A stretch of 64,000 bases of DNA from an uncultured Gammaproteobacteria bacterium (GCA_964571255.1 CAZNAA010000001.1:551674-615673); one strand, 5' to 3'; counted from the stretch's first letter, positions 14,211-35,794 are shown. Made by a program: numbers and translations. Notes: generated by a model not told the origin, from the sequence alone.

Positions 14211-14723
14211 TTAAGCTCGCTGAGCAGCCGCTACAGCTTTTTTCTCCTCATCAGATAATTCATGCTCCACTCCTTTTCCTTTTTCCACTTTCTTGGCATA
14301 CCATCTGGTTCCTAATCGGGAGTAAAGTCCTGAGATCACTATTCCTGTGTCTTCTTGGTTTAAGATTGAGAGAATAAAGCTTTGATCTCCTCCCGTATCC
14401 TTAAAAGGATTAAACCGGGTAAGACCAATTTTTTTTAGCGCAACTCGCTCTTCTTCTTCAATCTTATCATACCGATGGGATAGACTTGCAAGCATCTTTT
14501 TTGTTTCTTCTTCTTGCTTCACAATCTCTTCTAAAATTTGTTGTAAGTTCTTTCCTGAGGAGTCATGAATCAGACTGGTATAGTGATTTTTTAATTGAAA
14601 AAGAAGATAAGTAAGATATCCACTCCATGCGAAAAGAACAAGACAAAGAATACCTAGGGGGACCATATAGTTGGATAGTAGCCTCTTGACAATCTTTCTG
14701 TCAATAGTGTAATCTGGGCTCAT
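14211..14723 (-). CDS. DUF4446 family protein
   Basis: TM followed by GLTRFNPFKDTGGDQSFILSILNQEDTGIVISGLYSRLGTRWYAK, characteristic of DUF4446. Confidence 0.6.
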   Translation of the reverse strand: MSPDYTIDRKIVKRLLSNYMVPLGILCLVLFAWSGYLTYLLFQLKNHYTSLIHDSSGKNLQQILEEIVKQEEETKKMLASLSHRYDKIEEEERVALKKIGLTRFNPFKDTGGDQSFILSILNQEDTGIVISGLYSRLGTRWYAKKVEKGKGVEHELSDEEKKAVAAAQRA

Positions 14724-18740: not shown

Positions 18741-18746
18741 AGGGAT

Positions 18747-19721
18747 TTAATAGGTAGTAAGTTTCTCTCTTTCAATATCTGCTTCTACCATCATTTTTAC
18801 GAGAAGCTCGAAAGACGTTTTTGGTTCCCAGCCTAATACCTGTTTAGCTTTTGTATAATCTCCAAGTAAATTATCAACTTCAGCTGGACGCATAAACTCA
18901 GGCGTATTTGATTGGACATATTTTTTCCAATCTGTCTCACCAATAGCAGCAAATGATTTTTCTACAAATTCTTCAATACTATGATTTTCTCCTGTTGCGA
19001 TAACAAAGTCCTCCGCTTTTGGTTGTTGTAACATCATCCACATTGCTTCAACATAGTCTCCAGCAAATCCCCAATCCCTTTTCGCATCTAAATTTCCTAA
19101 TTTAAGTAATTTTTGCTTTCCCAAAGAGATCCGGGCAACTGCATTAGTAATCTTTCTTGTTGAGAATTCCAAACCACGTCTTGGAGATTCATGGTTGAAT
19201 AAAATGCCACAACTGGCAAACATATCAAAACTTTCCCGGTAGTTAACGGTAATATAGTGCCCGTATGCTTTTGCAACTCCATAGGGACTTCTCGGATAAA
19301 AGGGAGTGGTTTCTTTTTGAGGAGTTTCCAGTACTTTCCCAAACATTTCAGAGCTAGAGGCTTGATAAAACTTGATTCGTGGATTTACAATTTTTATTGC
19401 ATCCAATATCCGAGTTACGGAAAGACCTGTCACATCTCCTGTCAAAACAGGTTGCTCCCAAGATGTTTTGACAAACGATTGAGCAGCTAAATTATAGACT
19501 TCAGTCGGTTCTGATTTATTCAATGTTTGAATAAGTGAGCCTTCGTCAAGTAAATCTCCTGAGATAATTGTAACTTTATCCAAAAGATGTTGAATATTCA
19601 CCACATTTGGGGTACTTAATCTTCTTACTAATCCGTATACTTCATAGCCTTTTGATAACAAAAGTTCAGCTAAATATGATCCATCTTGTCCAGTAATTCC
19701 TGTTATTAATGCTTTTTTCAT
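18747..19721 (-). CDS. gmd: GDP-mannose 4,6-dehydratase
   Basis: [53 protein letters not shown]. Confidence 0.85.
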
Positions 19722-19733
19722 GTACAGTTAATT

Positions 19734-20681
19734 CTATAGAACTCTTTTCCAATAGTCCAGTATATCCTTGATTGTTTGAGATAAAGGAATAGTCGGAATC
19801 CATCCTGTATCCTTTTTTAGCTTCGTATAGTCACACACTAACTCGGGGATATCTAAAGGACGAAGAAGAGAAGGATCTTGGCTAATTGAAATTGGCTTTG
19901 AGGAATGGGAAAGAAGCAGGGAAAGAATATCCTCAAGAGAAATAGATTCTCCACTTCCAAGATTATATGCTTCTCCCTTTTTTCCTTTTTCCATAAGAAG
20001 TACATATGCTTTAACAACATCTCGCACATCAGTAAAATCTCTTTTTGCTTTTAGATTTCCAACCTGTAGATCTAAAGAAGAAGATATCCCATTTTCAATT
20101 TGAGCAATTTGTTTTGCAAAATGAGATACGGCAAAGTCTTCTGATTGATTCGGACCAATGTGGTTAAATGGTCGTACACGAATAATATCTAACTTGTAGG
20201 ACAAAAAATATTGGAGTCCTAAACAGTCCTGAGTAATTTTAGAGACAGCGTACGGATTAATAGGACGAAACGGCACAGTTTCATCAATAGGTAAGTTCTC
20301 TGGACTTACCAGACCGTAAATATCCGCTGAGGTTACTAAAAGAATCCGGGGAGAGTAGTCAGGAATTGCATGTATGGCTTCTAGCAAATTGAGAGTTACT
20401 AAACTGTTATTGGTAAGAAAAAGTGCGGGATCATCTAAACTCTTTTTGGCTGAGGCAAAAGACGCAAGGTGATAGATTTCATCAGGTTTTGTTTCTAAAA
20501 GATACTCGTATAGCTTTTGATACTCAAGGAGGTCTAATGCAGTATAGGAAAAGGAACTGTCAGAATATGGGCTTCTTCCTATTCCGTAAAGGGTAATATC
20601 TTGTTTTTGGAGTTCTTTAGTAAGATACCCTCCGACAAATCCATTAATTCCTGTTACCAACACTCGTTTTTTATCACTCAT
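19734..20681 (-). CDS. NAD-dependent epimerase/dehydratase, probable GDP-4-keto-6-deoxy-D-mannose reductase (Rmd-like)
   Basis: VLVTGINGFVGGYL Rossmann motif, YAVSK catalytic motif. Adjacent to gmd. Exact specificity is an inference. Confidence 0.55.
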   Translation of the reverse strand: MSDKKRVLVTGINGFVGGYLTKELQKQDITLYGIGRSPYSDSSFSYTALDLLEYQKLYEYLLETKPDEIYHLASFASAKKSLDDPALFLTNNSLVTLNLLEAIHAIPDYSPRILLVTSADIYGLVSPENLPIDETVPFRPINPYAVSKITQDCLGLQYFLSYKLDIIRVRPFNHIGPNQSEDFAVSHFAKQIAQIENGISSSLDLQVGNLKAKRDFTDVRDVVKAYVLLMEKGKKGEAYNLGSGESISLEDILSLLLSHSSKPISISQDPSLLRPLDIPELVCDYTKLKKDTGWIPTIPLSQTIKDILDYWKRVL

Positions 20682-20687
20682 GGATAT

Positions 20688-22007
20688 TTATGCTCGTCCC
20701 ACTCCAAGATAGGTAAATCCTAACTCTTTCATAACTGAAGGAGTATATACATTTCGTCCATCAATAAGAATTGGAGAACGCATACTCTTAGCCACTCGTT
20801 TCAAATCAATTTCTTTAAACTCATTCCACTCAGTAACCAAAATGATAAGATCTGCACCCTCTGCTACTGCATAGGCATCAGCTCCAAAAGAAACATTGGC
20901 TTCTCCTTTGAGAAGCTCTTTGGCATTTTCCTGAGCAATAGGATCAAACACCTTTATCACTGCACTTTCACTGGCTAGTGCATGAATAATAACTCGAGAA
21001 GGAGCATCTCGCATATCATCAGTATCTGGTTTAAAGGCAAGTCCCCAAATGCCAATTGTTTTTCCTTCAACTGATCCAAGCAGTTTTTTCGCTTTTTCGA
21101 CAATTGAGTGAATTGCCCTTTGATTTATTTCCTCAACCTCTTTAATAAGTTTTAAATCAACATTATTTTTCTCAGCAATTTTAATAAGAGCTTTTACATC
21201 CTTTGGGAAACAACTTCCTCCATATCCACTGCCTGCATTAAGAAATGATTTTCCAATTCGTTGATCAAGACCAATAGCTTCCAAAACTGCCACGCCATCC
21301 GCTCCGACAACTTCTGAAAGGTGTGCAATCATATTGGCATAGGAAATCTTTGTTGCCAAAAAAGCATTAGCAGCATATTTAATCATTTCTGCTGTTTCTA
21401 CCGTAGTTAAAACTAAATGAGTATCTTTTTGAGAATTTTTGATAAGTCCGTCATGAAGAGTCACCATTTTTTCTTGCGCTTTTTTGTTTTCTGTTCCAAT
21501 GACAATTCGATCAGGATGCTGCGTATCTCCAATGGCTTGACCTTCACGCAGAAATTCAGGGACTGAGGCAATATCAAATTCCGATTGCTCTGGCTTAACT
21601 TCCTGGACGATTTGTTGTACCTTTTTATTGGTCCCAACAGGAACAGTACTTTTGACTGTAATAACTGTGTGATTAGCGAGATGCGCTCCAGCTTTTTTGG
21701 CAACTTCAAAAACGACCGATAAATCAGCTGATCCATCCTCAAGTGGTGGTGTTCCAACTGCAATAAAGACAACTTCTGACTCTGGGATAGCGGGTGTGTA
21801 ATCAAGTGTAAAAAGGAGTCGTCCGGCCACTACGTTTCTTTTTACTAATTCTTCAAGACCTGGTTCGTAAATTGGAAGAATTCCCTTTTTTAGGTTTTCT
21901 ACTTTTTCCTGTGTGTGTCCAATGACATAGACTTTATTGCCTAAATCAGCAAACACTGCTGCAGTGACAAGTCCAACGTATCCATGGCCAATAAATGTAA
22001 TTGTCAT
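20688..22007 (-). CDS. ugd: Nucleotide-sugar 6-dehydrogenase, probably UDP-glucose 6-dehydrogenase
   Basis: MTITFIGHGYVGLVTAAVFA, catalytic Cys in GGSCFPKD. 439 aa. Confidence 0.65.
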   Translation of the reverse strand: MTITFIGHGYVGLVTAAVFADLGNKVYVIGHTQEKVENLKKGILPIYEPGLEELVKRNVVAGRLLFTLDYTPAIPESEVVFIAVGTPPLEDGSADLSVVFEVAKKAGAHLANHTVITVKSTVPVGTNKKVQQIVQEVKPEQSEFDIASVPEFLREGQAIGDTQHPDRIVIGTENKKAQEKMVTLHDGLIKNSQKDTHLVLTTVETAEMIKYAANAFLATKISYANMIAHLSEVVGADGVAVLEAIGLDQRIGKSFLNAGSGYGGSCFPKDVKALIKIAEKNNVDLKLIKEVEEINQRAIHSIVEKAKKLLGSVEGKTIGIWGLAFKPDTDDMRDAPSRVIIHALASESAVIKVFDPIAQENAKELLKGEANVSFGADAYAVAEGADLIILVTEWNEFKEIDLKRVAKSMRSPILIDGRNVYTPSVMKELGFTYLGVGRA

Positions 22008-22867
22008 ACTAGTTTTTCTTTGATATCGAGTAATCCCTCTGTAAGAGATTTCATTTTGACACCAAGTTTTGTTATCTTATCATTTTTCATGACTAATTTA
22101 TAGGGACGAGCTGCTCTGCCTGAAAAAAACTCCTTTCTCGTGGTTGGCGAGATAAGAGACGAGTCAAGTTCAAACACCTCTGCAATTTGTTGGGCAACAG
22201 AAAAGGGTGAGTGAGAATCACTTCCATTCACATGGAAAATTCCTGTACTCTGAGTTTTTATTAAGGTATCAAGAGAGTGGGCAATGTCATCAATAAGAGT
22301 AGGAGTAATAATCTGATCACTTACTGCTGTAATTGATTCATTATTTTGCAATCGAGAAAGCATGGCTCTCACGAAATCTTTTTTTTCTCCGGTAAAGGTA
22401 TAGGGATAGGAGGGACGGATAATAACCCAAGGGACAGAACAACTTGTAACTACTTTCTCTCCCTCATATTTTGACCTTCCATAAAAATTTATAGGATTAG
22501 GAGTATCCTCTTCTGAGTAAGATTCTTGTGTTCCGTCAAAGACCAAATCAGTTGAAAAATAAATTAATCTCTTTCCCGTTTCTTCACACGCTTTAACAAT
22601 ATTTCGAGTACCCTCAACATTTACATCCCACGCACTTCCTATCTCTTTTGAATCTTTCTCTCCTTCACACTCATCAACATTTGTTTTTCCCGCTAAATGC
22701 ACTACATAAGATGCATCTGACGAAGCAATCTTTTCTTTGACACTGTTAAGATCACTAATATCCACTCCTTCACTCCTACTCAAATTTTCAAACTCATATT
22801 GAGAAGAAAGAACGTGTTTGATTCGTGAGCCGATAAGACCAGTAAGACCGGTAACTAAAATATTCAT
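22004..22867 (-). CDS. rfbD: dTDP-4-dehydrorhamnose reductase
   Basis: MNILVTGLTGLIGSRI, YGRSKYEGE. About 287 aa with an RmlD-like layout. Confidence 0.7.
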   Translation of the reverse strand: MNILVTGLTGLIGSRIKHVLSSQYEFENLSRSEGVDISDLNSVKEKIASSDASYVVHLAGKTNVDECEGEKDSKEIGSAWDVNVEGTRNIVKACEETGKRLIYFSTDLVFDGTQESYSEEDTPNPINFYGRSKYEGEKVVTSCSVPWVIIRPSYPYTFTGEKKDFVRAMLSRLQNNESITAVSDQIITPTLIDDIAHSLDTLIKTQSTGIFHVNGSDSHSPFSVAQQIAEVFELDSSLISPTTRKEFFSGRAARPYKLVMKNDKITKLGVKMKSLTEGLLDIKEKLV

Positions 22868-23343
22868 TCAGACTTAAAAATGGGAAGATCAAATGCCTTT
22901 TTCTGGTATTGAAAAAATCTTAAAATAATATTTCGATGATCAAAAGCAAATTCCGTGTCTGGGGGAAGATCACTCTCTGAAATCCACTCAATCGTTTCCA
23001 CTTCTTCATTCTCTACTTCCTCTCCTCCTATTATTTTTACCAGATACGTAAAATTAACATTTTGCCTATCTTCATTTGCCCGATGAGGTGTATCTGTGAT
23101 TTGAAATAGAGCAATTATTTCTCCCTCATAGCCTGTTTCTTCACGTAGCTCCCGAAGAACTCCCTCCTTCGTACTCTCGTCTCTATCTAAAAAACCTCCT
23201 GGAACCGTATATTTACCAGGATTAGAAAGACTTGGGCCACGACGAGTTAGAAGAATTTCGTTTTTTTCATTCACAATCAGACAGTCTATTGTCACATGTC
23301 TCTTACTACCAGTCCCTCCATCTTCAAAAATACAATTAATCAT
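22864..23343 (-). CDS. NUDIX hydrolase embedded in the rfb operon
   Basis: Nudix box GGFLDRDESTKEGVLRELREETGYEG. Confidence 0.7.
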   Translation of the reverse strand: MINCIFEDGGTGSKRHVTIDCLIVNEKNEILLTRRGPSLSNPGKYTVPGGFLDRDESTKEGVLRELREETGYEGEIIALFQITDTPHRANEDRQNVNFTYLVKIIGGEEVENEEVETIEWISESDLPPDTEFAFDHRNIILRFFQYQKKAFDLPIFKSE

Positions 23344-24359
23344 TTCTTCCCTCCATACTGTTTTTCGTAATATTCTTTATATTCTCCACTTTTTATTTTC
23401 TCCCACCACTCTCTGTGAGTCTTGTACCATTCAACTGTTTTTTCAAGATACTCTTCAAATGAATATTGAGGACTCCACCCAAGTTCTCTATGGATTTTAC
23501 TCCAATCAATTGCATATCTTCTATCATGTCCTGGTCTATCAGATACATATTCAATCTGATCTTCTCCTTTTCCTACAATTTGGAGAAGAAGCTTAACTAC
23601 CTCTAAGTTGTTATATTCTTTCTCTAATTGGCTTCCAATACCATACGTCTCTCCCTCTTTTCCTTTTTGCAAAATAAGCTCAATGGCTCGACAGTGATCA
23701 TCAACATATAACCAATCTCTAACATTTAATCCATCTCCATACACTGGAACTTTTTTCCCGTCTAGTAAATTTGTAATGGCGAGAGGAATGAGTTTTTCTG
23801 GAAAATGATAGGGACCAAAGTTATTCGTACAATTAGAAATTGTAATGGGAAGTCCGTATGTATCAAAATATGCTCTCACTAAATGATCAGATGCTGCCTT
23901 GCTTGCAGCATAGGGACTATGTGGATCATAGTTTGTCTGTTCACTGAATTTCTCTTTACTCCCCAATTCTAAACTTCCAAACACTTCATCTGTACTAACA
24001 AAGTGAAAACGTTTTACTCCTTCTTTTTTGGTTGCATCTAATAGTACTTGAGTTCCCAGGACATTGGTTCGGACAAACTCAGCTGGTCCTGTAATAGATC
24101 TGTCTACATGTGTTTCTGCTGCAAAATGGACTACAGTATCCACTCCTTTCATTGCTTGTTCAACAATCTCTGGGTCAATAATATCTCCTTTGATAAACGT
24201 ATAGTTGGGATTTTCAGAAACTGTTTCTAGATTTTCTAAATTTCCTGCATAAGTGAGTTTATCTAAATTAATAATCTCATCCTCTGGATGATTTTTCATC
24301 CAATACAAGATAAAATTAGATCCAATAAATCCAGCACCACCTGTAACGAGTAATTTCAT
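23340..24359 (-). CDS. rfbB: dTDP-glucose 4,6-dehydratase
   Basis: MKLLVTGGAGFIGSNF, YAASKAASDHL, 339 aa. Confidence 0.85.
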   Translation of the reverse strand: MKLLVTGGAGFIGSNFILYWMKNHPEDEIINLDKLTYAGNLENLETVSENPNYTFIKGDIIDPEIVEQAMKGVDTVVHFAAETHVDRSITGPAEFVRTNVLGTQVLLDATKKEGVKRFHFVSTDEVFGSLELGSKEKFSEQTNYDPHSPYAASKAASDHLVRAYFDTYGLPITISNCTNNFGPYHFPEKLIPLAITNLLDGKKVPVYGDGLNVRDWLYVDDHCRAIELILQKGKEGETYGIGSQLEKEYNNLEVVKLLLQIVGKGEDQIEYVSDRPGHDRRYAIDWSKIHRELGWSPQYSFEEYLEKTVEWYKTHREWWEKIKSGEYKEYYEKQYGGKK

Positions 24360-24361
24360 AA

Positions 24362-24898
24362 TTATCCCCTAGTCATTTCCCAAATTTCTTTTCCAAGCAT
24401 ATCCCAAGGAAGTCTTCCTTCATCTGGATTTTTCAGATCAAATTGTTGATTCACCATATAAATAATTCCGGCTGGCTTTTCCCAAAGGTTTCCGACTCCA
24501 TGTGCAACTCCTCTGGGGATATATAATAAACGAGATTTCCCCTCTCCCATGACAAATCTCATGGTATTTCCTTTGGTTGGAGAATTCTCTCTCATGTCTG
24601 AAAGAACTAGTAATAATCTATCTTTTGGAGAAATAAACCAAATATCTTCTTGCTGTAAGTGAATGTGGTACGCCTTAATCGCTCCAGGCTCCATTTGCGA
24701 ATAGTTGAACTGCTTGAGATGAAATTCAGGAAAAAGTTGACTTACTCCCTCATCAAACCTCCCCAGTTCCATAAAAAACCCTCCATCATCAACAAAACAA
24801 GGGATGTCTTTAATAACTACTCCTTCAATTTGAGCAGACGCATCATATGACTGTACAGAATAGCTCTGTTGGGCAGCTTCAGTTAGTATTGCTTTCAT
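24362..24898 (-). CDS. rfbC: dTDP-4-dehydrorhamnose 3,5-epimerase
   Basis: Cupin. DDGGFFMEL matches the RmlC DxRGxFxE core. 178 aa. Confidence 0.7.
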   Translation of the reverse strand: MKAILTEAAQQSYSVQSYDASAQIEGVVIKDIPCFVDDGGFFMELGRFDEGVSQLFPEFHLKQFNYSQMEPGAIKAYHIHLQQEDIWFISPKDRLLLVLSDMRENSPTKGNTMRFVMGEGKSRLLYIPRGVAHGVGNLWEKPAGIIYMVNQQFDLKNPDEGRLPWDMLGKEIWEMTRG

Positions 24899-25617
24899 TT
24901 ATGGTTTTTATTGGCTTTCTCAGCCATAAAATTACTTGATCTCAATAGACTATCAAATGTCCCAGCATCCTCCCAAATCCCGTCAATAATATCAACTGAT
25001 AATTCACCTTGTTCTAAATATTTATTTTGAATATCAGTAATTTCTATTTCTCCCCTTTCTGATGGAGTAAGAGATTTTGCGAATTCTATAACCCGATTAT
25101 CAAAAATATACATCCCAACTAAGGCAAAATCACTTTTAGGAACTTTCGGTTTTTCAACAATCGAGATAACATTCATATCTTTATCAAATTCTACATTTCC
25201 AAACCGTTCAGGATCATGTACTTTTTTAGCAAAGATTTTTCCTCCACTTTTAAACTCTTTAATACTTTGTCTAAAATCGTTTTCAAAAATGTTATCTCCT
25301 AAAATAAGGGTTACATTATCTTTTCCAATAAAATTTTCACCTATAAGAAAAGCATCAGCTAGACCCTTTGCTTCTTCCTGAATTTCATACGTAAATCGAA
25401 CTCCAAATTGTTTTCCAGATCCCAAAAGATTAAGAAAGTGTCCGGAATAGGTTGGGGCAATAATAATGAGGATATCTTTAATTCCTGCTGAAACAAGTGT
25501 TTCAATAGGGTAAAAAATCATCGGTTTATCATAAATGGGGAGAAGTTGTTTTGAAGTAATTTTTGTTAATGGGAGAAGTCGTGTTCCTTTCCCGCCTGCA
25601 AGAATAATTCCCTTCAT
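24895..25617 (-). CDS. rfbA: Glucose-1-phosphate thymidylyltransferase (short-form sugar nucleotidyltransferase)
   Basis: MKGIILAGGKGTRLLPLT...KQLLPIYDKPMIFYPIE. Confidence 0.75.
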   Translation of the reverse strand: MKGIILAGGKGTRLLPLTKITSKQLLPIYDKPMIFYPIETLVSAGIKDILIIIAPTYSGHFLNLLGSGKQFGVRFTYEIQEEAKGLADAFLIGENFIGKDNVTLILGDNIFENDFRQSIKEFKSGGKIFAKKVHDPERFGNVEFDKDMNVISIVEKPKVPKSDFALVGMYIFDNRVIEFAKSLTPSERGEIEITDIQNKYLEQGELSVDIIDGIWEDAGTFDSLLRSSNFMAEKANKNHK

Positions 25618-25620
25618 ACA

Positions 25621-25887
25621 TTAGACTAGAAAGCGGATAAGGAAGAAGAGTACCGCAATTCCAAGTGAACCAATCATAACATATTCCAAAAAAACTTTCA
25701 GATGTAAATCATGCTCTAATTTGTGATGGATACTAGCTGAGAGAATATACCAACAGGTTACTCCAACTGTTAATACCATGAGCAGTTGTTTAGTATTAAA
25801 GAAGATATAGGCAGAAACTAAACTCACAACAAAAAATCCTAAAAGAAAAAAATAATAAAGGTGATGTCTTGTTAGTTCTTTTCTCAT
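25621..25887 (-). CDS. Small 3-TM membrane protein, hypothetical
   Basis: 88 aa, hydrophobic. Sits in the operon. Confidence 0.35.
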   Translation of the reverse strand: MRKELTRHHLYYFFLLGFFVVSLVSAYIFFNTKQLLMVLTVGVTCWYILSASIHHKLEHDLHLKVFLEYVMIGSLGIAVLFFLIRFLV

Positions 25888-26744
25888 AAAATATTTCCTT
25901 TCGTAATCAGATAAATCATTCCACTAATAAATGATAAATACAACAAATGATCAAAGTTGTGTGAGAGGATTCGAACAATTTTTCGTCTCTCAATAATAAT
26001 TAGATCAAATACAATAATAAGCGCAAATAATAAAACAATACTAATTGCTATTTGTTTTCCCACTTCAGTGGTATTAACAAGAGGTCTTGTCTCAACAGCC
26101 GCAACTTGCCCATTCGATATAGCTGGAGCAACAATATGAGGAGCCTCCTTCCCTACTTCAGGAGTAGATTTTGCCAGAGTAGACCCAGTACTCCCAAACA
26201 TTTGCACAATAAGTACCGTTTCTTCCCCTGTTAATTTCCCTGTAATAACAGCAAACCCCACATCAGAATAATTTTTTGAAAGTAAATTTTCCTTGTGAGA
26301 TGGACTTGCTATCCAGGCTTCAACTGCTGCGTTTGAAGTAGAAAATCCACGAGCAAGATTCTCTCCTGCATAGGCGTATTCATATCCTTCTTCTTTAATA
26401 AAACCCCATGGAGTTCCTCCGTCTGGCGCAAAATGGGCCCAGTAATTTTTTTCGATCATATCACTCGCCTTTTTTGCTGCAGCATTACTTAATGATTGGT
26501 TTAAAGAAAGTGGCTTTAGTCCCTCAGCCACTCTTTTTTTATTGGTTAGCTCTAATAATTCTTGGATGGAGACACTTGTTTGTGTTCCTAAAATCTGTGG
26601 ATACGTATGCTTCAGAGGAGCAATAACTACTCCTAGAACAAAAAGAATACTAATAATCCCAATTAAACTATGCGGATGAAGCAGTTTTGCCCGGTGATTA
26701 TTTGATTCGTGCGGAAGAAAAAAATGACGGAGAAATTGTCTCAT
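25884..26744 (-). CDS. CAP/SCP/PR-1 domain secreted protein with N- and C-terminal TM anchors
   Basis: YWAHFAPDGG...YAGENLARGF...SPSHKENLL CAP motifs. Confidence 0.65.
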   Translation of the reverse strand: MRQFLRHFFLPHESNNHRAKLLHPHSLIGIISILFVLGVVIAPLKHTYPQILGTQTSVSIQELLELTNKKRVAEGLKPLSLNQSLSNAAAKKASDMIEKNYWAHFAPDGGTPWGFIKEEGYEYAYAGENLARGFSTSNAAVEAWIASPSHKENLLSKNYSDVGFAVITGKLTGEETVLIVQMFGSTGSTLAKSTPEVGKEAPHIVAPAISNGQVAAVETRPLVNTTEVGKQIAISIVLLFALIIVFDLIIIERRKIVRILSHNFDHLLYLSFISGMIYLITKGNIL

Positions 26745-27684: not shown

Positions 27685-28145
27685 ATCAGTTGTTTTATTC
27701 TTGCTCTATTATCTTCAATAAATCGTCTCTGATCAGGCCAAAAAATAGCAGGCAGAGAATCAAGAGGGAACCACTCAGTTGAATAATGCCTATCCGTTTC
27801 GGTAGGATTAGTTTCTTTCACATCCGTTGTAAAAAGAAACATATGCTGAATAGACCAGGTTTTTTTGTTATACGTTAAGCGTTCTAACTTTCCAAGATAC
27901 GTGACTAAATGAAGCGTATGAATCCCCGCTTCTTCCCCAATCTCCCGAATCGCCGTTTGCTCAAGAGTTTCGCCTTTTTCAACGGTTCCCTTGGGAATTG
28001 CCAGCTTACTAACCTTTCCTTCATGAATAAGAGCAATAAGAATTTTTTCTCCTTCTCGTCTTATGACTAATCCCCCAGCAGTTACTTTTTCTCTAATGCC
28101 TTCTGGCTTCATGTAAAATGATTGATCAATTCTGTGTTTATACAT
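27681..28145 (-). CDS. NUDIX hydrolase
   Basis: Nudix box PKGTVEKGETLEQTAIREIGEEAG. Confidence 0.7.
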   Translation of the reverse strand: MYKHRIDQSFYMKPEGIREKVTAGGLVIRREGEKILIALIHEGKVSKLAIPKGTVEKGETLEQTAIREIGEEAGIHTLHLVTYLGKLERLTYNKKTWSIQHMFLFTTDVKETNPTETDRHYSTEWFPLDSLPAIFWPDQRRFIEDNRARIKQLI

Positions 28146-28620
28146 ATAAATCGATTGTCCCCTCCCTCATTCCTTCTTTTATTGAGTCAAGATTGAAAAG
28201 TTCTATCTCAATTCGCTTCTCTGGAAGATAGTCTTTCATTTTATCTGCCCATTCAATAACAAAAAGATTTTTAGGATCTTTCATCAAGTCCAAGAGTCCT
28301 AATCCTTCAATATCATGAAGAGAGTTTGTTCTATATAAGTCTACATGAAAAAGAAAATCCCATTTTTTATTATCCTTTATTTCATATCGTCTCATGAGGA
28401 TAAAAGTGGGAGAGGTAATTCGTTGAGAAATGCCTAAGGTTTTCCCCACTCCCTGAGTAAAAGTTGTTTTTCCACTCCCCAAGTCCCCAAAAAGAGCAAT
28501 GACATTTTGATCACATTTTGAGATCACTTCTTTTGCAAATGCATAGGTATCTTCAACAGATATGCAACTGAATACTTTTTCTTTCCAAAACATATAACTT
28601 ATCCTTTCTGTTCTCGCCAA
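28138..28620 (-). CDS. tsaE: tRNA t6A biosynthesis ATPase TsaE/YjeE
   Basis: Walker A GDLGSGKTTF, SPTFILMRRYE, HVDLYR. Confidence 0.8.
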   Translation of the reverse strand: MARTERISYMFWKEKVFSCISVEDTYAFAKEVISKCDQNVIALFGDLGSGKTTFTQGVGKTLGISQRITSPTFILMRRYEIKDNKKWDFLFHVDLYRTNSLHDIEGLGLLDLMKDPKNLFVIEWADKMKDYLPEKRIEIELFNLDSIKEGMREGTIDLYV

Positions 28621-29528
28621 GATCGATAGATAATTATAGCACAGCCAAGCAGGAGAAACCCACCTATCCCCATTAAAATAACAGCAGAAACTGAGGAGGT
28701 ATTATCTTCATACTGTAACTGCTCAACAATAATAGTAGGAGTTGGCGTAATATCACTTGTTACTCCTAGTACTTCTTCTTGAAATTCTTCTGTGCTACTT
28801 GAGGTACTGATAATAGATGGAGAGAGAAAAGGTGTAGGTATTTTGGAAATACTTGGAGTTGGGATCTTTAGAAACGTAGTGGGAGTTGGCGTTTTTAGAG
28901 GCGTAGGACTTGGGGGTTTGGTTGGAGTAGGCGTAGGAGTAAGTAAAGTAGGAGTTGGGGTTATCACTACTGCAGGTTGTTCAGGAGGTGAAATTTGGGT
29001 AAAGGAAATTTGATCAAACAAGATCGCTGTTTGAGGATTAGGGGACGTAATATTTCCCAGAAGTTCAATTCTAGCTTTAATTGCAGATAGAGGAGCTTGA
29101 ACTGCCTCAATGGAAACATCTTTATATCCAAGGGAATTTTCAGTGAGTTGAGAAGAATCAGTCTTACTTACCTCTCCTCCAGTTCCTCTCCAACTAATTC
29201 GCAAGATCACATAGGAAAAAGATGGCGAATTCTTTTGAATCTTCCCTGTCAATTTATAATAAGATTCTGGCTCAACATCAACATCTTGATAGATATAAAT
29301 GGATCCTGTGGTATTGTTTTGTTTATTAAGAGACGCAGCATTTATTCCCTCACTTCCCGGTGAGAAAAGCGAAAAACTCATCGTACTCACATTTTTTACC
29401 CAACTTACTGGAGTATCACTACTCACTTCTTCAAAGGAGGGATTGAGTAACAGATTGGATGCCAGAACAGAAGAAGGGAAAAAGAAGAAAAGATACAGAA
29501 AAAGGCAAATAGACAAGAACTTTGCCAT
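28599..29528 (-). CDS. Cell-surface protein: signal peptide, CBM-like beta-sandwich domain, Pro/Thr-rich linker, C-terminal TM anchor
   Basis: MAKFLSICLFLYLFFFF signal, NPSFEEVSSD... N-terminal domain, PTPTLLTPTPTPTKPPSPTPLKTPTPT linker, C-terminal AVILMGIGGFLLLGCAIIIYRSWREQKG. ATG at 29528 preferred over the TTG at 29561. Confidence 0.45.
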   Translation of the reverse strand: MAKFLSICLFLYLFFFFPSSVLASNLLLNPSFEEVSSDTPVSWVKNVSTMSFSLFSPGSEGINAASLNKQNNTTGSIYIYQDVDVEPESYYKLTGKIQKNSPSFSYVILRISWRGTGGEVSKTDSSQLTENSLGYKDVSIEAVQAPLSAIKARIELLGNITSPNPQTAILFDQISFTQISPPEQPAVVITPTPTLLTPTPTPTKPPSPTPLKTPTPTTFLKIPTPSISKIPTPFLSPSIISTSSSTEEFQEEVLGVTSDITPTPTIIVEQLQYEDNTSSVSAVILMGIGGFLLLGCAIIIYRSWREQKG

Positions 29529-29564
29529 GAGTTTAGGATAGCATAGGAGACGGAAAAGCAAAAC

Positions 29565-30788
29565 TTAGTTCAAGTACCCGTATTGAAAAATTTGTGACGT
29601 ACTATAATGATCACTAAACTTTAAATTAGCTCCATACCAAGGATCATTCATGACGTAATCCCCATTAGATCCACTTTTAAACACAATAAAATGCGTTCCA
29701 TACGGCCCTGCTTTGACCCCAATAATAACAGGTTTTCCTGCAGCTAACTTACTATCAATTGATCCCAAGTCCTTACTCCATATAGAGGTAAATCGTCCTC
29801 CACCCCAGGGAATAAGCATATAGGCAGTATCTGAGAAGAAATAGGAGTTAGTTGCAGCAACTTCTGCAGGAGTAATAGATTGACCACTTTGTTTAAGCAC
29901 CATCGCCATAGACGTTAGTAAACAACCAACTTCCCATACTTTCTCTCCACTTGCTCCAATAGTATTGTTTCCCCACCTACTATCCCGTTGATTGTAGTAC
30001 CACCCGTCAGGACTTGCTTGAGGAGGAAGGACTCCACTTCCCGATTGAGACGTAGCAAAGGACTTAAACCCACTAATTTGGGCTCGAGCTTCTTTAAGTA
30101 AAGATTGATATTTCGCCTCGTCATTTTTGGTAACTGATAGCAGAACTTGTTTACTCTTCTTCTCTTGCTCCAATTGATTGGTATAGGCAACTAGTTGAGA
30201 TTTTAAACTCTCTACTTTTTTCTTTTTTTGCTCAAAAATATCTTTTTGATTTTGATAGTCAGTTTTGGCTTGCTGCGTATCATAAATCAGTTTTTTATCA
30301 TGCTCTTGGGCCAGCTTTATATAATTTGCCCGCCTAATGAGATCTTTTGCATCTGAAGCAGCTACAAGTAAGTGAACTGGAGGAACAGTTCCTTGCTGAT
30401 ACGTAACGACAATCCGATTAAGAAGTGCTTTGGTAATATTGGTCAAAGCTTCTTCCAAGTGTTCAATCTTATCTGTTGCTACCTCAATATCTTTGGTGAG
30501 TTTTGTGATCTCAGCTTGGGTTGAATTAATCCGAAGTTGGGTAAGTCGAGTCTGACTATCCATCACAGTAATTTGTGAAGAAAGGGTTTTCCCTTGAGCT
30601 TGGGCTTCAGCAACTTTTGATTCAAGCTCTGCGATCTTTTTTTCTAATTCTTCCTTCTTCTCTCCATTCTCTTCGGGAGTAGGAGTAGCTGAGGTAGTAG
30701 GAGTAGGGGTTGCTTCTTGCGCAAAAACCGTTAGATTAAGAGAGAGAAATCCTACGAATAAGAGAAAAAAAAACAACGTTTTTTTCAT
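29565..30788 (-). CDS. Secreted coiled-coil protein with C-terminal peptidase C39-like (C39_2) cysteine peptidase domain, likely FtsEX-controlled peptidoglycan hydrolase (PcsB/EnvC analogue)
   Basis: Signal peptide, about 200 aa of heptad-rich coiled coil, then YYNQRDSRWGN...VGCLLTSMAMVL as in Peptidase_C39_2. Immediately downstream of ftsE-ftsX. Confidence 0.55.
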   Translation of the reverse strand: MKKTLFFFLLFVGFLSLNLTVFAQEATPTPTTSATPTPEENGEKKEELEKKIAELESKVAEAQAQGKTLSSQITVMDSQTRLTQLRINSTQAEITKLTKDIEVATDKIEHLEEALTNITKALLNRIVVTYQQGTVPPVHLLVAASDAKDLIRRANYIKLAQEHDKKLIYDTQQAKTDYQNQKDIFEQKKKKVESLKSQLVAYTNQLEQEKKSKQVLLSVTKNDEAKYQSLLKEARAQISGFKSFATSQSGSGVLPPQASPDGWYYNQRDSRWGNNTIGASGEKVWEVGCLLTSMAMVLKQSGQSITPAEVAATNSYFFSDTAYMLIPWGGGRFTSIWSKDLGSIDSKLAAGKPVIIGVKAGPYGTHFIVFKSGSNGDYVMNDPWYGANLKFSDHYSTSQIFQYGYLN

Positions 30789-30795
30789 ACCTGAT

Positions 30796-31659
30796 TTATT
30801 TGTTCTTTAAATACCTGTGGACTGCTAGGAGACTGGAGAACCATCCAAGAATAATAGCGCCACATAATTCAATTCCTAAGACAATGAGAAGAAAAATAGG
30901 AGAAACAGGCAAAACTGGGATGTCTCCTAGGAAGGACTTTAAAAAGGGAGTTGCATACAAAAGCATTCCTGAGGCAATTATCCAACCAATAAAAGCTCCA
31001 ATTATCCCATAAATCATTCCTTCAAGTACAAAAGGGAAGCGAATATAGGCATTCGTTGCACTCATCAGACGCATAATCTCAATTTCTTCTCTTTTTTGAG
31101 AGATTTTAATCCCAATAATAATCACCATAAGAAAAATCGAATCAAGAATTAAAACAACGCTCAATCCCCCACCTATTTTTCGTAGTGAATCAGTCCAGCG
31201 TCTCAATTTTTCAATAATATCTTGAGGAAGAATTACATTCTCAATGATTGGGGATTTTACTAATTCTGAGAAGCTCAGCAGATCATCTAGTTTTTTAGTT
31301 GAAATATCAATAGAGGCAGGCAGAGTATCAGCAGTGACAAATTCCAAAAGGAGTGGATCATTTTTAAACCAAGCAGAGTATCTTTTATACGCTTCTTCTT
31401 GAGAGACATAGGTAATAGAGGACGTTTTTCCTGTTGCTTCAAACTCTTTCATTAAGGCATCAATCTCTGCAGGTTTTGCCTCTTTTTTAAAAAAGATATT
31501 CATCTGAGGTTGCGCCTCAAAATAGGAAATGATTTGAGCAGATCCTGAAATAATAAATGCAAAAACGGAGATGACAAAGAAGGTCTGCGTCATAATAAAA
31601 ATAGCAGCAAATGCTTGATAGGGAGAGCGTCTCATGTGTTTCCACGCAGTCGCAAACAT
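30796..31659 (-). CDS. ftsX: Cell division permease-like protein FtsX
   Basis: 4 TM with a large first extracellular loop. Follows ftsE with a 1-nt overlap. Confidence 0.8.
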   Translation of the reverse strand: MFATAWKHMRRSPYQAFAAIFIMTQTFFVISVFAFIISGSAQIISYFEAQPQMNIFFKKEAKPAEIDALMKEFEATGKTSSITYVSQEEAYKRYSAWFKNDPLLLEFVTADTLPASIDISTKKLDDLLSFSELVKSPIIENVILPQDIIEKLRRWTDSLRKIGGGLSVVLILDSIFLMVIIIGIKISQKREEIEIMRLMSATNAYIRFPFVLEGMIYGIIGAFIGWIIASGMLLYATPFLKSFLGDIPVLPVSPIFLLIVLGIELCGAIILGWFSSLLAVHRYLKNK

Positions 31660-32453
31660 TATTTCTCCTCCTCCTTTTTATGCGTTTCATGCTTTTCCTC
31701 TTTTTTCTCTCCGTGCTCGTGTTTTTCCTCACTTTTCACTTCATGTTTTACTTCTGTTTTAACCTCATGTTTCTCCTCAGGCTTAGATTCTTTTTTGGTA
31801 TCTTTCATAAGCTTTCCCTTTTCTAACGTAATAACTCGTTTTACGATATTATTTACAATATCGGTATTGTGCGTTGCCATAAGAACTGTAGTACCTTTTT
31901 CATTAATATCTTGAAGTAGTTTCACAATCTCCCAAGAGGTTGCCATATCTAAATTTCCTGTTGGTTCATCAGCTAAAAGAATTTGAGGAGAAAAAACGAG
32001 TGCTCGAGCAATAGCCGCTCGTTGCAACTCACCACCAGAGAGTTGAATGGGAAATTTATCTCGGTGTTGAGAGATTCCCACCTGCTCCATTACGGCATGA
32101 ACCTTTTCTGCCGCTTCTCTTTCAGAGAGTTGGGCAATATGCAAAGGAAGAAGAATATTTTCAAAAATGGTTCGATCTGAGAGAAGTTTAAGATCTTGAA
32201 AAATAACTCCAATGTTTCGTCTAAGAGAGGGGATTTTATTTTTAGGAAGTTTAGCTAAATCCCATTCATTAACCAAAACACTCCCTGTTGAGGGGAGCAT
32301 ATCTCGAATAAGCATACGTAATAGAGTCGTTTTCCCACTTCCTGATGGTCCCACCAGAAAAAGAAACTCTCCAGGATCTACGGAGAGAGAAATACTATCT
32401 AGAGCCATTTCTCCAGTCGGGTATGCTTTTGATACGTTAACTAATTGAATCAT
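31659..32453 (-). CDS. ftsE: Cell division ATP-binding protein FtsE with a His/Lys/Glu-rich C-terminal tail
   Basis: Walker A GPSGSGKTT, ABC signature LSGGELQR, Walker B LLADEPTGNLD. Tail HEVKTEVKHEVKSEEKHEHGEKKEEKHETHKKEEEK. Confidence 0.85.
   Translation of the reverse strand: MIQLVNVSKAYPTGEMALDSISLSVDPGEFLFLVGPSGSGKTTLLRMLIRDMLPSTGSVLVNEWDLAKLPKNKIPSLRRNIGVIFQDLKLLSDRTIFENILLPLHIAQLSEREAAEKVHAVMEQVGISQHRDKFPIQLSGGELQRAAIARALVFSPQILLADEPTGNLDMATSWEIVKLLQDINEKGTTVLMATHNTDIVNNIVKRVITLEKGKLMKDTKKESKPEEKHEVKTEVKHEVKSEEKHEHGEKKEEKHETHKKEEEK
31662..31795 (-). repeat. Low-complexity, imperfectly reiterated coding repeat encoding the FtsE KE/H tail
   Basis: Reiterated catg(c/t)ttt(t/c)cctc units are visible on the plus strand. 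Confidence 0.5.
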
Positions 32454-32470
32454 AGACAGGAAAGAGATGA

Positions 32471-32941
32471 TTACTTAATAACTTGGACTCGGCCAACATC
32501 CATGAGCCATCCAGCAGATTGTCCATCATACGTTTGTCCCCAGATTTGAATTTCTTTTCCAACAAAAATTGAGAGATCAAGTGTTGAGGAAGATAAATAG
32601 ATGTTTTGACTGTCTCCCCCTGGTCTAACTAAGTGATATTCTCCTTCTCCATTTATTCCACCTTCTGCAAGCTTGCCTTTTGCATCATCTTTAAAGATCT
32701 TCTGATCAGTTGAGCCATAGGTTTTTCCAACTTCAATTTGATCTTTTGCCGTTGGTGTTTCTGAGACACTCACTGTGTTGATTTTCCCTCCAGAGGAGGC
32801 AAAGATGTATCCTGTTCCCAGTCCTAAAATAGCTGAAGCGAGTAAAATGAGAATGACTGGCATGGTAAATAGTGGTGTTTTTTCCATAGGTGTATCCATG
32901 GTATGCAATACTTCCGATTCTTGATTTTGTGTTTGCTCCAT
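32471..32941 (-). CDS. Membrane-anchored hypothetical protein (first gene of the ftsEX operon)
   Basis: Single TM (FTMPVILILLASAILGLGTGYIF) followed by a soluble domain. No known motif. Confidence 0.35.
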   Translation of the reverse strand: MEQTQNQESEVLHTMDTPMEKTPLFTMPVILILLASAILGLGTGYIFASSGGKINTVSVSETPTAKDQIEVGKTYGSTDQKIFKDDAKGKLAEGGINGEGEYHLVRPGGDSQNIYLSSSTLDLSIFVGKEIQIWGQTYDGQSAGWLMDVGRVQVIK

Positions 32942-33002
32942 AGAAAAACGAACAATCTCAGTAAAACATATTTTGAAAGATTTGGCAACCCAAGGGGTAA
33001 AT

Positions 33003-34010
33003 TTAGGAGAGGAGCCGAATTTCTGCCTGGATGAATTGCTCTATCTCTCCATCTAATACTGCTGAGGTATTTGAGGTTTCAACATCCGTTCGTAAGTCCT
33101 TTACCATTTGGTATGGGTGCAAAACGTAGGAGCGAATCTGGTTTCCCCAGCCTGGAGTTTTATACCCTCCTTTTAATTCTTCTTGCTGTTTTCTCTCTTC
33201 TTCTTGCTGAAGTGCCCAGAGTTTGGCTCGAAGGATTTTCATCGCAAACTCTCTATTTTGATTTTGATATCTTTCAGCTTGAGCTGTGACGACAATACCA
33301 CTTGGTTTATGCTTAATTCGAACGGCGGTTGAGACTTTGTTCACATTTTGCCCTCCATGCCCCCCAGCTCGAAAGGCGTCAAATTCCAAATCATCCTCTT
33401 TAATTATAATCGCCGCATTTTGCTCAATTTGGGGCAACACTTCAACGAGAGCAAATGAAGTTTGACGAAGGTTATCTGAGTTAAACGGAGATTGACGAAC
33501 AAGACGGTGTACTCCTGCTTCAAATCGCAAAAGACCATAAACATACTCCCCATCCACTGTGAGTGAAATACTTTTAATTCCAGCTTCTTCTCCTGGAGTA
33601 TGATCTACTATTTCATATGTCCAATTCTTTCTCTCAAAATATCTCGTATACATTCGATAAAGCATCTCTGCCCAATCCATTGCCTCAGTTCCTCCTTGTC
33701 CAGAATGAATTGAAATAATTGCACCATCTTTGTCATACGGTGAGGTAAAATATAAAATTGCTTCTAACTTTTCTAGAAGTTGCTCAGCTTCTGAAAATTC
33801 TTTCTCGTCAATCCAAAGTTGTAAAAGCTCTAACTCCTCTACTTCTTTTTGCAACTTCGCCATCTCCTTCATTTTCTCCCCCGCTCCTCTGGCATCATCC
33901 CAAAAAGTAGACGTGCCTGACTCCTGAGTAAGTTCAGCAATCTTTTGTTTTTTTCCAGGAATATCTGATTTTTCTAATACTTTTTGTGCACGAAGGGAAA
34001 GGTTGTCCAT
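33003..34010 (-). CDS. prfB: Peptide chain release factor 2, encoded in a single frame (no programmed frameshift)
   Basis: SPF motif [13 protein letters not shown] motif [22 protein letters not shown]-terminus aligns to the post-shift part of canonical RF2. The ORF-track start (34103) is a TTG extension into the upstream gene; ATG at 34010 chosen. Confidence 0.8.
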
Positions 34011-34024
34011 AGAGGTATTATACT

Positions 34025-35422
34025 CTAGATCAAAGAGACAATGGCAGCCACAGCAGCAACTGTCATAAGAAGCACTACATACCAGCCCACAGCAGCAACC
34101 CAATCACTATTTGCCCATTTTCCCATAACTACCTTATCACTACTAATTCGAACAATCAGGATAAGAATAACTGGTGCAATTAATCCATTTGCCAAAGCAG
34201 AATACAAAAGAGCTTTTATAGGGTCTATTCCCAAAAAGTTCATCCCTAGTCCTAGTAACATAGAGATAATAATAACGCCATAAAAAGAAGGCGCATCATT
34301 TAGTTTTCGATATAATCCATGTCTCCATTTCATACTTTCAGAAATAGCATAGGAGGCTGAACCTGCCAGGACAGGGATTGAGAGAAGACCAGTTCCGATA
34401 ACTCCTAGAGCAAAGAGTAAATAGGCTTTATCTCCTGCAATGGGACGAAGCGCTTGAGCTGCATCAGCTGCTGTTTTGATTTCAGTTACTCCACTTCGGA
34501 AAAGAGTCATGCCACAAGCAGCGATGATAAAAAACATAACTAAATTGGAGAGAAACATCCCTGACCAAACATCAATTCTCATCTTTTTTACTTGACTTGG
34601 ATTTGCTCCTTCTCGAAGTCTCAGAGTTGTTTTCCCTTTAAGAATTGCCTCTTCGACTTCTTGAGAGGTTTGCCAGAAGAAAAGGTAGGGAGAAATTGTT
34701 GTTCCTAATATGGCACAAATTAAAATGATTTGATCTTTGGAAAAAGTAATCGAGGGAATAAAAGCTGAGGAAAGTAACTCTTTCCAATCAAATTGGATAC
34801 TCAAGGCAGAAAAGATATAAGAGAGAAGAACAAGTGCTAACCATTTAAGGTATTTGGCATATTTCTCATAAGACGTAAAAATTTGAAGTGCTAGAGTAAA
34901 AACCGTAAAGCAAATAAGTACCATATTAAAGTTTAAAGAGGGAACAAGTAATTGAGTAGATTTTGCCATAGCTCCTAAGTTGGCCCCGATATTGAGCGTG
35001 TTAGCAGCAAAAAGAAGCAGAGTACAGGTATAGAGTACTTTTTTTGAATAATACAATCTAATATTTCCTGCCAACCCTCTTCCCGTAACTAGTCCAATTC
35101 GAGCACACATTTCTTGAACAACTGACATTAATGGGAAAGTAAAAAAGGCAAGCCAGCTAAGTTGCAACCCATATGATGCACCAGTTTGGGAATAAGTAGC
35201 AATTCCTGATGGATCATCATCGGCTGCTCCTGTTGTCAGTCCTGGTCCCAAAGTGTGCCAGTATTCTCTCGCTCTTTTCACTTGAGGCTGATTATGTACT
35301 GATTTCATTACCCCTTTGGAGACATTTATTGATCCTTGCAAAAGATCTGAGGGAACTTCTGTAAGCTTTTTGGCAACATTTTCCATATATTCAGCGTACG
35401 TGAAGAAGCTAAACGGTGTCAA
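34025..35422 (-). CDS. mntH: NRAMP family divalent metal (Mn2+/Fe2+) transporter
   Basis: [22 protein letters not shown]...[16 protein letters not shown] Nramp signature. 11-12 TM. Confidence 0.75.
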
Positions 35423-35428
35423 TATAGA

Positions 35429-35794
35429 TTACTTTGATGGAGCTTTGGGAAGAGGAATCTGTTTTGCCTGCTCAAGCGCATATTGAGCCATTTCCCACAA
35501 ATCTGATGGAATTTTTCTACTTCGAGAAAGGGTATTTGTTATATCTTCTAGTTTAAATTCTTGTTTTTTAATTGTTTCAACCTGCGTAGTGATATCGGAT
35601 TGTAATTGTTCTTTAGGATCTTTTTTTTCATCAGTTACTCCAAGCACTTTTGGAGAAATCCCTAGTTGTTTGGCTAAAAATAACTTTAATCCTGGGGAAA
35701 AAAGCGTTAATCCGTAAAGCCCAAATAACAAGAGCAAAATAATAATGATACTTCGAGCAATTCCGTAATGGAAATGCTTATGACGCATTAACAT
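35429..35794 (-). CDS. Membrane-anchored hypothetical protein
   Basis: 121 aa with one TM. No motif. Confidence 0.3.
   Translation of the reverse strand: MLMRHKHFHYGIARSIIIILLLLFGLYGLTLFSPGLKLFLAKQLGISPKVLGVTDEKKDPKEQLQSDITTQVETIKKQEFKLEDITNTLSRSRKIPSDLWEMAQYALEQAKQIPLPKAPSK

Follow-up and report, generated by a model that had tools for sequence, protein, structure and literature searches.

A candidate FtsEX-linked cell wall hydrolase with a Peptidase_C39_2-like head in a Levybacteria-like genome

Four tightly packed open reading frames (ORFs) on the minus strand of a 64,000-nucleotide stretch of DNA deposited as uncultured Gammaproteobacteria bacterium (GCA_964571255.1 CAZNAA010000001.1:551674-615673; the whole stretch is from now on referred to as the window) encode a small membrane protein (ORF156), FtsE, FtsX and a secreted protein of 407 amino acids (aa), here named HYD (29565-30788, stop codon included). 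The locus likely represents an FtsEX-governed cell wall hydrolase module in which the partner protein carries a Peptidase_C39_2-type catalytic head instead of a CHAP, NlpC/P60 or degenerate LytM domain. This interpretation is built on the gene identities, gene order and conservation of the locus as well as on the predicted fold and predicted catalytic residues of HYD, all of which are documented below. The window has a G+C content of about 38% throughout and the nearest named relatives of its proteins are found in 'Candidatus Levybacteria' and 'Patescibacteria group' metagenome-assembled genomes (MAGs), indicating that the source, as judged from sequence relationships, is a Levybacteria-like member of the Microgenomates (Patescibacteria, also known as the candidate phyla radiation, CPR).

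The C-terminal head of HYD

The C-terminal region of HYD (aa 248-407, 29568-30047) is a Peptidase_C39_2-like domain with a predicted papain fold, as supported by Pfam, AlphaFold2 and Foldseek. Pfam Peptidase_C39_2 is matched with 25.0 bits by full-length HYD and with 31.7 bits by aa 248-407 alone (cutoff 24). All 25 homologues tested match the same family, with a best E-value of 5.8e-10, and none of them yielded a match to CHAP, NlpC/P60 or LytM at E <= 1. The true C39 family (PF03412) is reached by HYD with 12.4 bits only, against a cutoff of 22, and weak Peptidase_C39 matches are present in 23 of the 25 homologues (best E-value 5e-6). HYD is secreted and lacks transporter domains.

Modeling of the isolated C-terminal domain with AlphaFold2 resulted in a high-confidence structure (predicted local distance difference test, pLDDT, 93.3; predicted template modeling score, pTM, 0.90). 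When searched against the PDB with Foldseek, the best match was a C39-like peptidase from Bacillus anthracis (3ERV; E-value 3.9e-5, TM-score ~0.54, 15% identity), followed by the pseudomurein endoisopeptidase PeiR (8z4h). Other structural matches include the CdiA-CT toxin (8ssk), SpeB, the C39 domains of PCAT1 and ComA, AvrRpt2 and cathepsins, with the CHAP/NlpC-type amidase Tae1 appearing only at rank 49. The initial annotation of this DNA had proposed a C39-like rather than CHAP or LytM head based on two short motifs; both motifs are indeed present (YYNQRDSRWGN, aa 264-274, and GCLLTSMAMVL, aa 288-298) and the assignment agrees with the Pfam and Foldseek results.

The predicted catalytic residues are Cys289 (codon 29922-29924) as nucleophile, located at the N-terminus of a helix spanning aa 289-300, His366 (29691-29693) as general base at the start of a strand (aa 365-374), and Asp382 (29643-29645) as third member of a triad at the end of a strand (aa 377-382), within an NDPW motif. 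In the model, these three residues are placed in the arrangement seen in papain. Together with Gly288 and Pro383 they are invariant in 33 homologues, and the same set is invariant in all of the related loci whose sequence extends that far (42 of 43), down to about 30% identity in Streptococcus. Thus, neither a non-peptidase fold nor the loss of a Cys/His dyad, either of which would have spoken against a peptidase, was found. Gln267 (29988-29990), part of a YNQRDxRW motif, is a candidate oxyanion-hole residue, a role that we infer from the Q...C...H...D order of C39-type peptidases. It is likewise invariant in the 33 homologues; because QRDxRW was built into the pattern used to search for related loci, this 33-sequence alignment is the only independent support for its invariance. 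It should be noted that Peptidase_C39_2, CHAP and NlpC/P60 domains all possess a papain-like fold, so that the swapped head is a cousin of the known ones and does not represent unrelated chemistry.

The coiled-coil scaffold of HYD

HYD starts with a predicted Sec-type signal peptide (aa 1-23, 30720-30788) that contains a hydrophobic segment (aa 3-25) and ends in VFA before the following QE. A Pro/Thr-rich linker (aa 24-41, 30666-30719) is predicted to be disordered, with pLDDT values below 50 for aa 15-43, and connects to a coiled-coil scaffold (aa 42-247, 30048-30665). In the full-length AlphaFold2 model (33-sequence alignment, mean pLDDT 81), the scaffold consists of helices at aa 42-131, 147-220 and 224-247, with a turn containing a short helix at aa 132-146, and is followed by the globular domain. 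The coiled coil of about 200 aa that had been noted from the sequence alone is borne out by structure prediction, and the signal peptide noted along with it is predicted here as well.

The scaffold resembles those of known FtsEX partners. Foldseek comparison of the full HYD model with the PDB placed PcsB (4cgk) on top with an E-value of 2e-4. RipC from FtsEX/RipC cryo-electron microscopy structures (8idc, 8jia, 8idd) and Cg1735 were among the other leading matches, and further matches included EnvC from FtsEX complexes (8tzl, 6tpi), the RipA N-domain and the SteB-RipA complex. Over the hairpin itself the closest structural match is FtsEX-bound RipC (8idd; TMt 0.76, root-mean-square deviation 2.6 Å, 144 columns). 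At the sequence level, the NCBIfam EnvC model partially matches HYD aa 43-237 (E-value 2e-9), accompanied by partial DIP1281 and RipA matches. Pfam CC_PcsB aligns with aa 108-177 at 18.3 bits, under its cutoff of 27, and precomputed CC_PcsB (PF24568) matches exist for many HYD homologues, several of which carry the JGI label 'peptidoglycan hydrolase CwlO-like protein'. PDB sequence searches with full HYD and with a C-domain profile returned coiled-coil noise and a non-significant AlbC match only.

A weak collinear alignment can be drawn between HYD aa 44-242 and EnvC aa 39-237. In EnvC, residues 114-160 represent the FtsX-binding stretch (PMC11627006). Through the alignment this stretch maps to about aa 119-165 of HYD, which is the hairpin turn, and by analogy the turn is presumed to be the FtsX-binding end of HYD. 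A hairpin of the PcsB/RipC/EnvC type carrying a Peptidase_C39_2 head supports the earlier proposal of a different catalytic module on the same regulatory scaffold.

FtsE, FtsX and the arrangement of the locus

The protein encoded by ftsE (31659-32453) exceeds the cutoff of the FtsE model TIGR02673 (272.5 vs 264.85 bits), matches ABC_tran with an E-value of 2.8e-35 and contains intact nucleotide-binding motifs, namely Walker A (GPSGSGKT, aa 35), signature (LSGGE, aa 138) and Walker B (LLADEPT, aa 159). The ftsX gene (30796-31659) encodes a permease-like protein with hydrophobic segments consistent with four transmembrane (TM) helices and an extracellular domain of about 110 residues between TM1 and TM2 (~aa 48-160). 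It matches Pfam FtsX_ECD (aa 52-132, 52.2 bits, cutoff 23.5) and Pfam FtsX (aa 166-281, 40.7 bits, cutoff 25.5) as well as the solved FtsX chains 8i6o, 8tzj, 8hd0 and 8idb from P. aeruginosa, V. cholerae, E. coli and M. tuberculosis (E-values 2e-14 to 2e-10). NCBIfam equivalog cutoffs are missed (163 vs 255 and 160 vs 225), which marks this FtsX as divergent. With curated thresholds exceeded for both proteins, the earlier identification of FtsEX holds and, by sequence criteria, both are bona fide members of their families. Separately, FtsE ends in a low-complexity Lys/Glu/His-rich tail of about 45 residues (aa 219-264, 31659-31796; KDTKKESKPEEKHEVKTEVKHEVKSEEKHEHGEKKEEKHETHKKEEEK) located beyond the 214-position FtsE model and reached by alignments only in the closest relatives (L001, L002, L012, L013).

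ORF156 (32471-32941), ftsE, ftsX and the HYD gene are separated by gaps of 17, -1 and 7 nucleotides, the start of ftsX sharing one base with the stop of ftsE (TAATG overlap). The four ORFs are thus present and tightly packed on the minus strand as first annotated. The block is preceded by prfB and followed by ORF320, encoding a Pro/Thr-rich surface protein, and then tsaE.

Distribution of HYD and the ftsE-ftsX-HYD gene order

More than 600 homologues with the HYD architecture were found among 5.8 billion proteins, with names no more specific than 'hypothetical' or 'CwlO-like'. Searching the same set with a C-domain profile mainly returned short fragments of this family and some stand-alone C39_2 proteins. 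Among contigs representing one genome per species, 43 loci (L001-L043) encode the C-terminal domain. The 28 Microgenomates-type loci (L001-L028) are titled Levy-, Shapiro-, Woese- or Amesbacteria or Microgenomates, or are evidently mislabelled, and every one that reaches far enough displays the order ftsE-ftsX-HYD; ftsE is present in 26, two short contigs beginning inside ftsX. Given more than 600 homologues of the same architecture and a gene order recurring in 28 independent loci, a chance association does not account for this arrangement.

Outside this group the domain occurs in other contexts. In Moran- and Parcubacteria (L033-L037) both coiled coil and C39_2 domain are retained and the gene follows gltX. 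In Chloroflexi and Dormibacterota (L029-L032) the C39_2-like domain follows another kind of N-terminal region, which has about 300-350 aa and is not a coiled coil, and ftsEX does not adjoin. In L030 this region includes a HLYVLDGWGDVHPV-like motif; in L029 and L032 it includes the start of the C-domain a second time, as a weak partial copy. Distant copies are encoded in Streptococcus (L038, L039, L041, L042) and Erysipelotrichaceae (L040, L043).

The Levybacteria-type prfB-ORF156-ftsEX-HYD block was also encountered, at 60-74% identity, in MAGs titled 'uncultured Gammaproteobacteria' or 'Pseudomonadales' (L001, L002, L005, L008, L009, L012, L015, L016, L024, L026, L027), and a Parcubacteria-type gene combining coiled coil and C39_2 domain is present in L034, titled 'Candidatus Bathyarchaeia archaeon'. 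These Gammaproteobacteria, Pseudomonadales and Bathyarchaeia titles look like placeholder or wrong labels, or mis-binned contigs.

ORF156 as a candidate fourth component

The block opens with a membrane-anchored protein of unassigned family, as had been noted initially. ORF156 is a single-pass membrane protein (one TM segment, aa 21-50) in which a variable linker leads to a strongly conserved extracytoplasmic C-terminal domain of about 90 residues with the pattern GEGxHxLxRxGGxSQxVYLTSSxxDL...VWGxT...GWLMDVG. Searches of Pfam with single sequences and of the PDB with a profile gave no match; weak TRAP_alpha matches in 7 of 29 members fall below a useful level. The 327 homologues identified are all unnamed and without Pfam domain, and 421 representatives at 50% identity among 1.84 billion proteins are all single-domain proteins of 100-250 aa.

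Of the 26 related loci covering the interval from prfB to ftsE, 25 have ORF156 there. Being so constant in position, it is a candidate accessory factor and, by analogy, it probably acts as an accessory subunit. Precedents of unrelated sequence are SweC/SweD for FtsEX-CwlO and SteA/SteB in the Corynebacterineae. A more far-reaching proposal would be a four-part division hydrolase machine of the Microgenomates, with the C39_2 head introducing a bond specificity new among FtsEX partners and ORF156 serving as an obligatory subunit, similar in function to SweC/SweD or SteA/SteB, different in fold, and touching FtsX or HYD through its ectodomain. We regard this extended version as possible but doubtful.

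Peptidoglycan as the presumed substrate

Several relatives of the C-terminal domain are found in proteins with features of cell wall enzymes. A Streptococcus bovimastitidis protein (690 aa, L038:4438-6510) combines a signal peptide, six ChW repeats, a GBS_Bsp-like repeat and a Peptidase_C39_2 domain (50.7 bits). Its signal peptide is of the KxYKxGKxW type, its C39_2 domain contains QRDxRW, GC, H and DP motifs, and relatives are encoded in L039, L041 and L042. This layout is typical of wall-targeted hydrolases, and the protein is likely an uncharacterised streptococcal wall hydrolase. Viral structural matches of the HYD C-domain comprise proteins named as phi29-type morphogenesis hydrolase or tape measure and cyanophage proteins named 'Lysozyme' and 'Endolysin'; cyanophage sequence matches reach 32% identity at an E-value of 1e-4. 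Peptidase_C39_2 has been catalogued among the lysin catalytic domains of phages infecting Gram-positive bacteria (PMC8223927), and 3ERV was the best HHpred match of the papain-like 'N5' domain of mycobacteriophage Lysin A (PMC3314691). PeiR cuts peptide links in the archaeal cell wall. The ChW/Bsp-like fusions and the phage lysin-like relatives favor peptidoglycan, which we infer by analogy to be the substrate of HYD.

Proposed mechanism

We hypothesize that the ATPase FtsE and the membrane subunit FtsX, with its extracellular domain, assemble into an ATP-binding cassette (ABC) complex of the usual kind that does not transport, and that HYD is exported via the Sec pathway. The HYD hairpin (aa 42-220) would dock between two FtsX extracellular domains through its turn region (~aa 119-165). 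At rest, contact with the coiled coil or with the third helix (aa 224-247) may keep the cysteine peptidase inactive. When FtsE binds and hydrolyses ATP, the hairpin would be compressed, as it is in EnvC and RipC, and the peptidase set free (by analogy with the systems reviewed in PMC11627006). The released peptidase could use Cys289, His366 and Asp382 to hydrolyse peptide or amide bonds in the stem or cross-link of peptidoglycan while the septum splits or the wall grows, with ORF156 possibly acting as an accessory subunit alongside FtsEX-HYD. The FtsX contact, the autoinhibition and the role of ORF156 are proposed by analogy with the better-studied systems.

Among ABC 'transporters' that move no substrate and act instead as mechanical switches for wall-cutting enzymes, FtsEX is the one understood best. 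If the proposal is correct, a fourth type of head, conserved across a superphylum-level group of uncultured bacteria, would suggest that the coiled-coil scaffold serves generally as an adaptor to which different hydrolase domains have been grafted. The largely uncharacterised Peptidase_C39_2 family would gain a concrete role in cell wall cleavage, and a first handle on septum splitting would become available in CPR/Patescibacteria, whose division is almost unstudied. As modular swapping of related papain-like domains is already an established theme, the gain would be incremental and not conceptual.

Alternative explanations

A number of observations weigh against an FtsEX-governed wall hydrolase and partly support other explanations. 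With respect to the head, the C-domain reaches TM-scores of only about 0.5 against solved structures, and the searchable literature, covering YvpB as well, did not yield a characterised peptidoglycan-cleaving Peptidase_C39_2 member. Canonical C39 peptidases cleave leader peptides and not the cell wall. The head could thus belong to a protein- or peptide-processing protease that matures or sheds a surface protein, in which case coiled coil and FtsEX would regulate surface proteolysis. The weak Peptidase_C39 matches of the homologues and the presence of PCAT1 and ComA peptidase domains, SpeB and AvrRpt2 among the structural matches would fit such a function, as would the Pro/Thr-stalked surface protein ORF320 encoded directly downstream. 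However, no ABC exporter is fused to the C39-like domain, and ORF320 is only weakly and sporadically conserved beside HYD (5 of 28 loci). Relatives of the domain are fused to wall-binding ChW/Bsp-like repeats or reside in phage lysin-like proteins, the second-best structural match, PeiR, cuts cell wall peptides, and all known FtsEX coiled-coil partners act on the wall (PMC11627006). We therefore consider a processing protease unlikely.

With respect to FtsEX control, the neighborhood is one long co-directional gene array, and a promoter and terminator scan of 28000-35600 gave counts no higher than the shuffled expectation, leaving the designation of the block as an operon unproven. The hairpin turn (aa 120-170) is no more conserved than the remaining coiled coil (0.63 vs 0.64), although a binding interface would be expected to be, and conservation is consequently not used here as support for an FtsX contact. 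In L033-L037, no ftsEX is present within 6 kb of the gene combining coiled coil and C39_2 domain, showing that linkage to ftsEX is not universal. HYD might accordingly be a cell wall enzyme outside FtsEX control, its adjacency reflecting nothing more than a gene order frozen in small CPR genomes and its coiled coil serving oligomerisation or another partner, comparable to RipA under SteB. This would be compatible with the structural matches to the SteB-RipA complex and to the N-domain of RipA, and 'FtsEX-independent control of RipA' is the subject of a paper (PMC9897464). Yet the ftsE-ftsX-HYD order and its minimal gaps are kept across lineages in which HYD is only about 40-50% identical, whereas genes further downstream vary over the same loci (ORF320 in 5, tsaE at variable distance), and the closest match of the hairpin is RipC bound to FtsEX. 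Independence from FtsEX thus appears improbable. Lastly, HYD could be an offensive enzyme that opens the wall of a host and not that of its producer, given that an episymbiotic, host-attached way of life is reported for the ultra-small Patescibacteria and that the fold of the C-domain also occurs in a contact-dependent inhibition toxin (8ssk) and in virion-associated phage lysins. The gene is, however, located among housekeeping genes (prfB, ftsEX, tsaE) in all Microgenomates loci, is present in a single copy with a conserved PcsB/EnvC-type scaffold, and neither an immunity gene nor a secretion-system context was seen; an offensive function is very unlikely. An FtsEX-governed wall hydrolase remains the explanation we prefer.

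Neighboring genes in the window

The ORF listed as prfB (33003-34103, minus strand) begins with a TTG start and a Cys-rich N-terminal extension of 31 aa that overlaps an Nramp gene (34025-35422). Alignments with homologues begin only at residue ~28-32, for which reason the ATG at 34010 is probably the true start. A frameshift in prfB was considered and dismissed, as the frame can be read without interruption from ATG 34010, the extension to the TTG start being artefactual; this gene for release factor 2 (RF2) thus lacks a programmed +1 frameshift. Downstream, ORF320 (28599-29561, minus strand) follows HYD after a gap of 3 nucleotides and overlaps tsaE. It encodes an N-terminal hydrophobic segment, and a domain of about 160 aa starting with NLLLNPSFEE, followed by a long stalk rich in Pro and Thr and by a TM anchor at the C-terminus. 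No Pfam domain was detected in ORF320; its ~160-aa domain is reminiscent of carbohydrate-binding modules. With weak matches in only five of the 28 related loci, ORF320 was not counted among the conserved genes of the cluster.

Genes for nucleotide-sugar metabolism and glycosylation, all in the same direction, form a long block at 17460-25617 (minus strand) that encodes rmlA/C/D-like proteins, several members of the GDP-mannose dehydratase/epimerase family, a UDP-glucose dehydrogenase and a family 2 glycosyltransferase (GT2) with a GtrA domain, together with a PMT_2-type glycosyltransferase at 15917-17485. This block suggests rhamnose-containing wall or surface glycans. A 286-aa protein (25884-26744, minus strand) contains a CAP (cysteine-rich secretory protein/SCP) domain (E-value 6e-19), a family uncommon in bacteria. 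DUF3048 (12991-14208) and DUF4446 (14211-14723) proteins adjoin secDF.

Comparison with known FtsEX systems and C39-like proteins

According to a 2024 review, the heads of FtsEX partners are exclusively LytM (EnvC), CHAP (PcsB) and NlpC/P60 (RipC, CwlO) domains, with C39 not mentioned (PMC11627006). A full-text literature search covering FtsEX together with C39, C39-like coiled-coil peptidoglycan hydrolases and FtsX of Patescibacteria turned up no account of the present architecture. Taken together, the system represents an undescribed variant.

FtsEX-RipC of M. tuberculosis and C. glutamicum and FtsEX-CwlO of B. subtilis share with the present locus FtsE and FtsX, a secreted two-helix hairpin, a C-terminal papain-like cysteine peptidase and the linkage of the hydrolase gene to ftsEX. 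The RipC and CwlO heads are NlpC/P60 domains (Cys-His-His), whereas the HYD head is a Peptidase_C39_2 domain with a predicted Cys-His-Asp triad and a preceding QRDxRW motif. Hairpin and head are connected by a third helix and about 15 aa in HYD and by a 52-aa proline-rich linker in RipC. The accessory proteins SweC and SweD of FtsEX-CwlO are missing from the HYD locus, where the unrelated ORF156 is co-conserved instead. FtsEX-PcsB of Streptococcus pneumoniae is similar in that the partner is a secreted monoderm-type protein of about 400 aa with a C-terminal Cys/His hydrolase. The PcsB head, however, is a CHAP domain (C292/H343/E360) and no CHAP match was obtained for HYD. To our knowledge, pcsB is not adjacent to ftsEX in the pneumococcus. 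The FtsEX-EnvC-amidase systems of E. coli, P. aeruginosa and V. cholerae possess a collinear coiled coil, and the helix located between hairpin and globular domain in HYD stands where EnvC has its restraining arm. In EnvC, the LytM domain is catalytically dead and activates separate amidases, whereas HYD keeps a predicted catalytic triad and is thus most likely an enzyme itself.

Among C39-type proteins, HYD is above the gathering threshold of Pfam Peptidase_C39_2 (PF13529) and has the YvpB-like 3ERV as its best Foldseek match. Known PF13529 proteins are stand-alone or have other partners, and no description links any of them to FtsEX or to a coiled coil of the PcsB/EnvC type. True C39 bacteriocin-processing peptidases are located N-terminal to an ABC exporter and cleave double-glycine leaders; HYD corresponds to them neither in score nor in layout. 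PeiW, PeiP and PeiR as well as the phage lysin 'N5'/C39_2 domains are likewise papain-like domains that act on, or are assigned to, cell wall peptide bonds. At the sequence level, HYD is not related to PeiR and its relation to the cyanophage proteins is weak. PeiW, PeiP, PeiR and the 'N5'/C39_2 domains belong to lytic enzymes of phages or prophages in which targeting domains of other kinds are present, whereas HYD is a putative housekeeping division enzyme.

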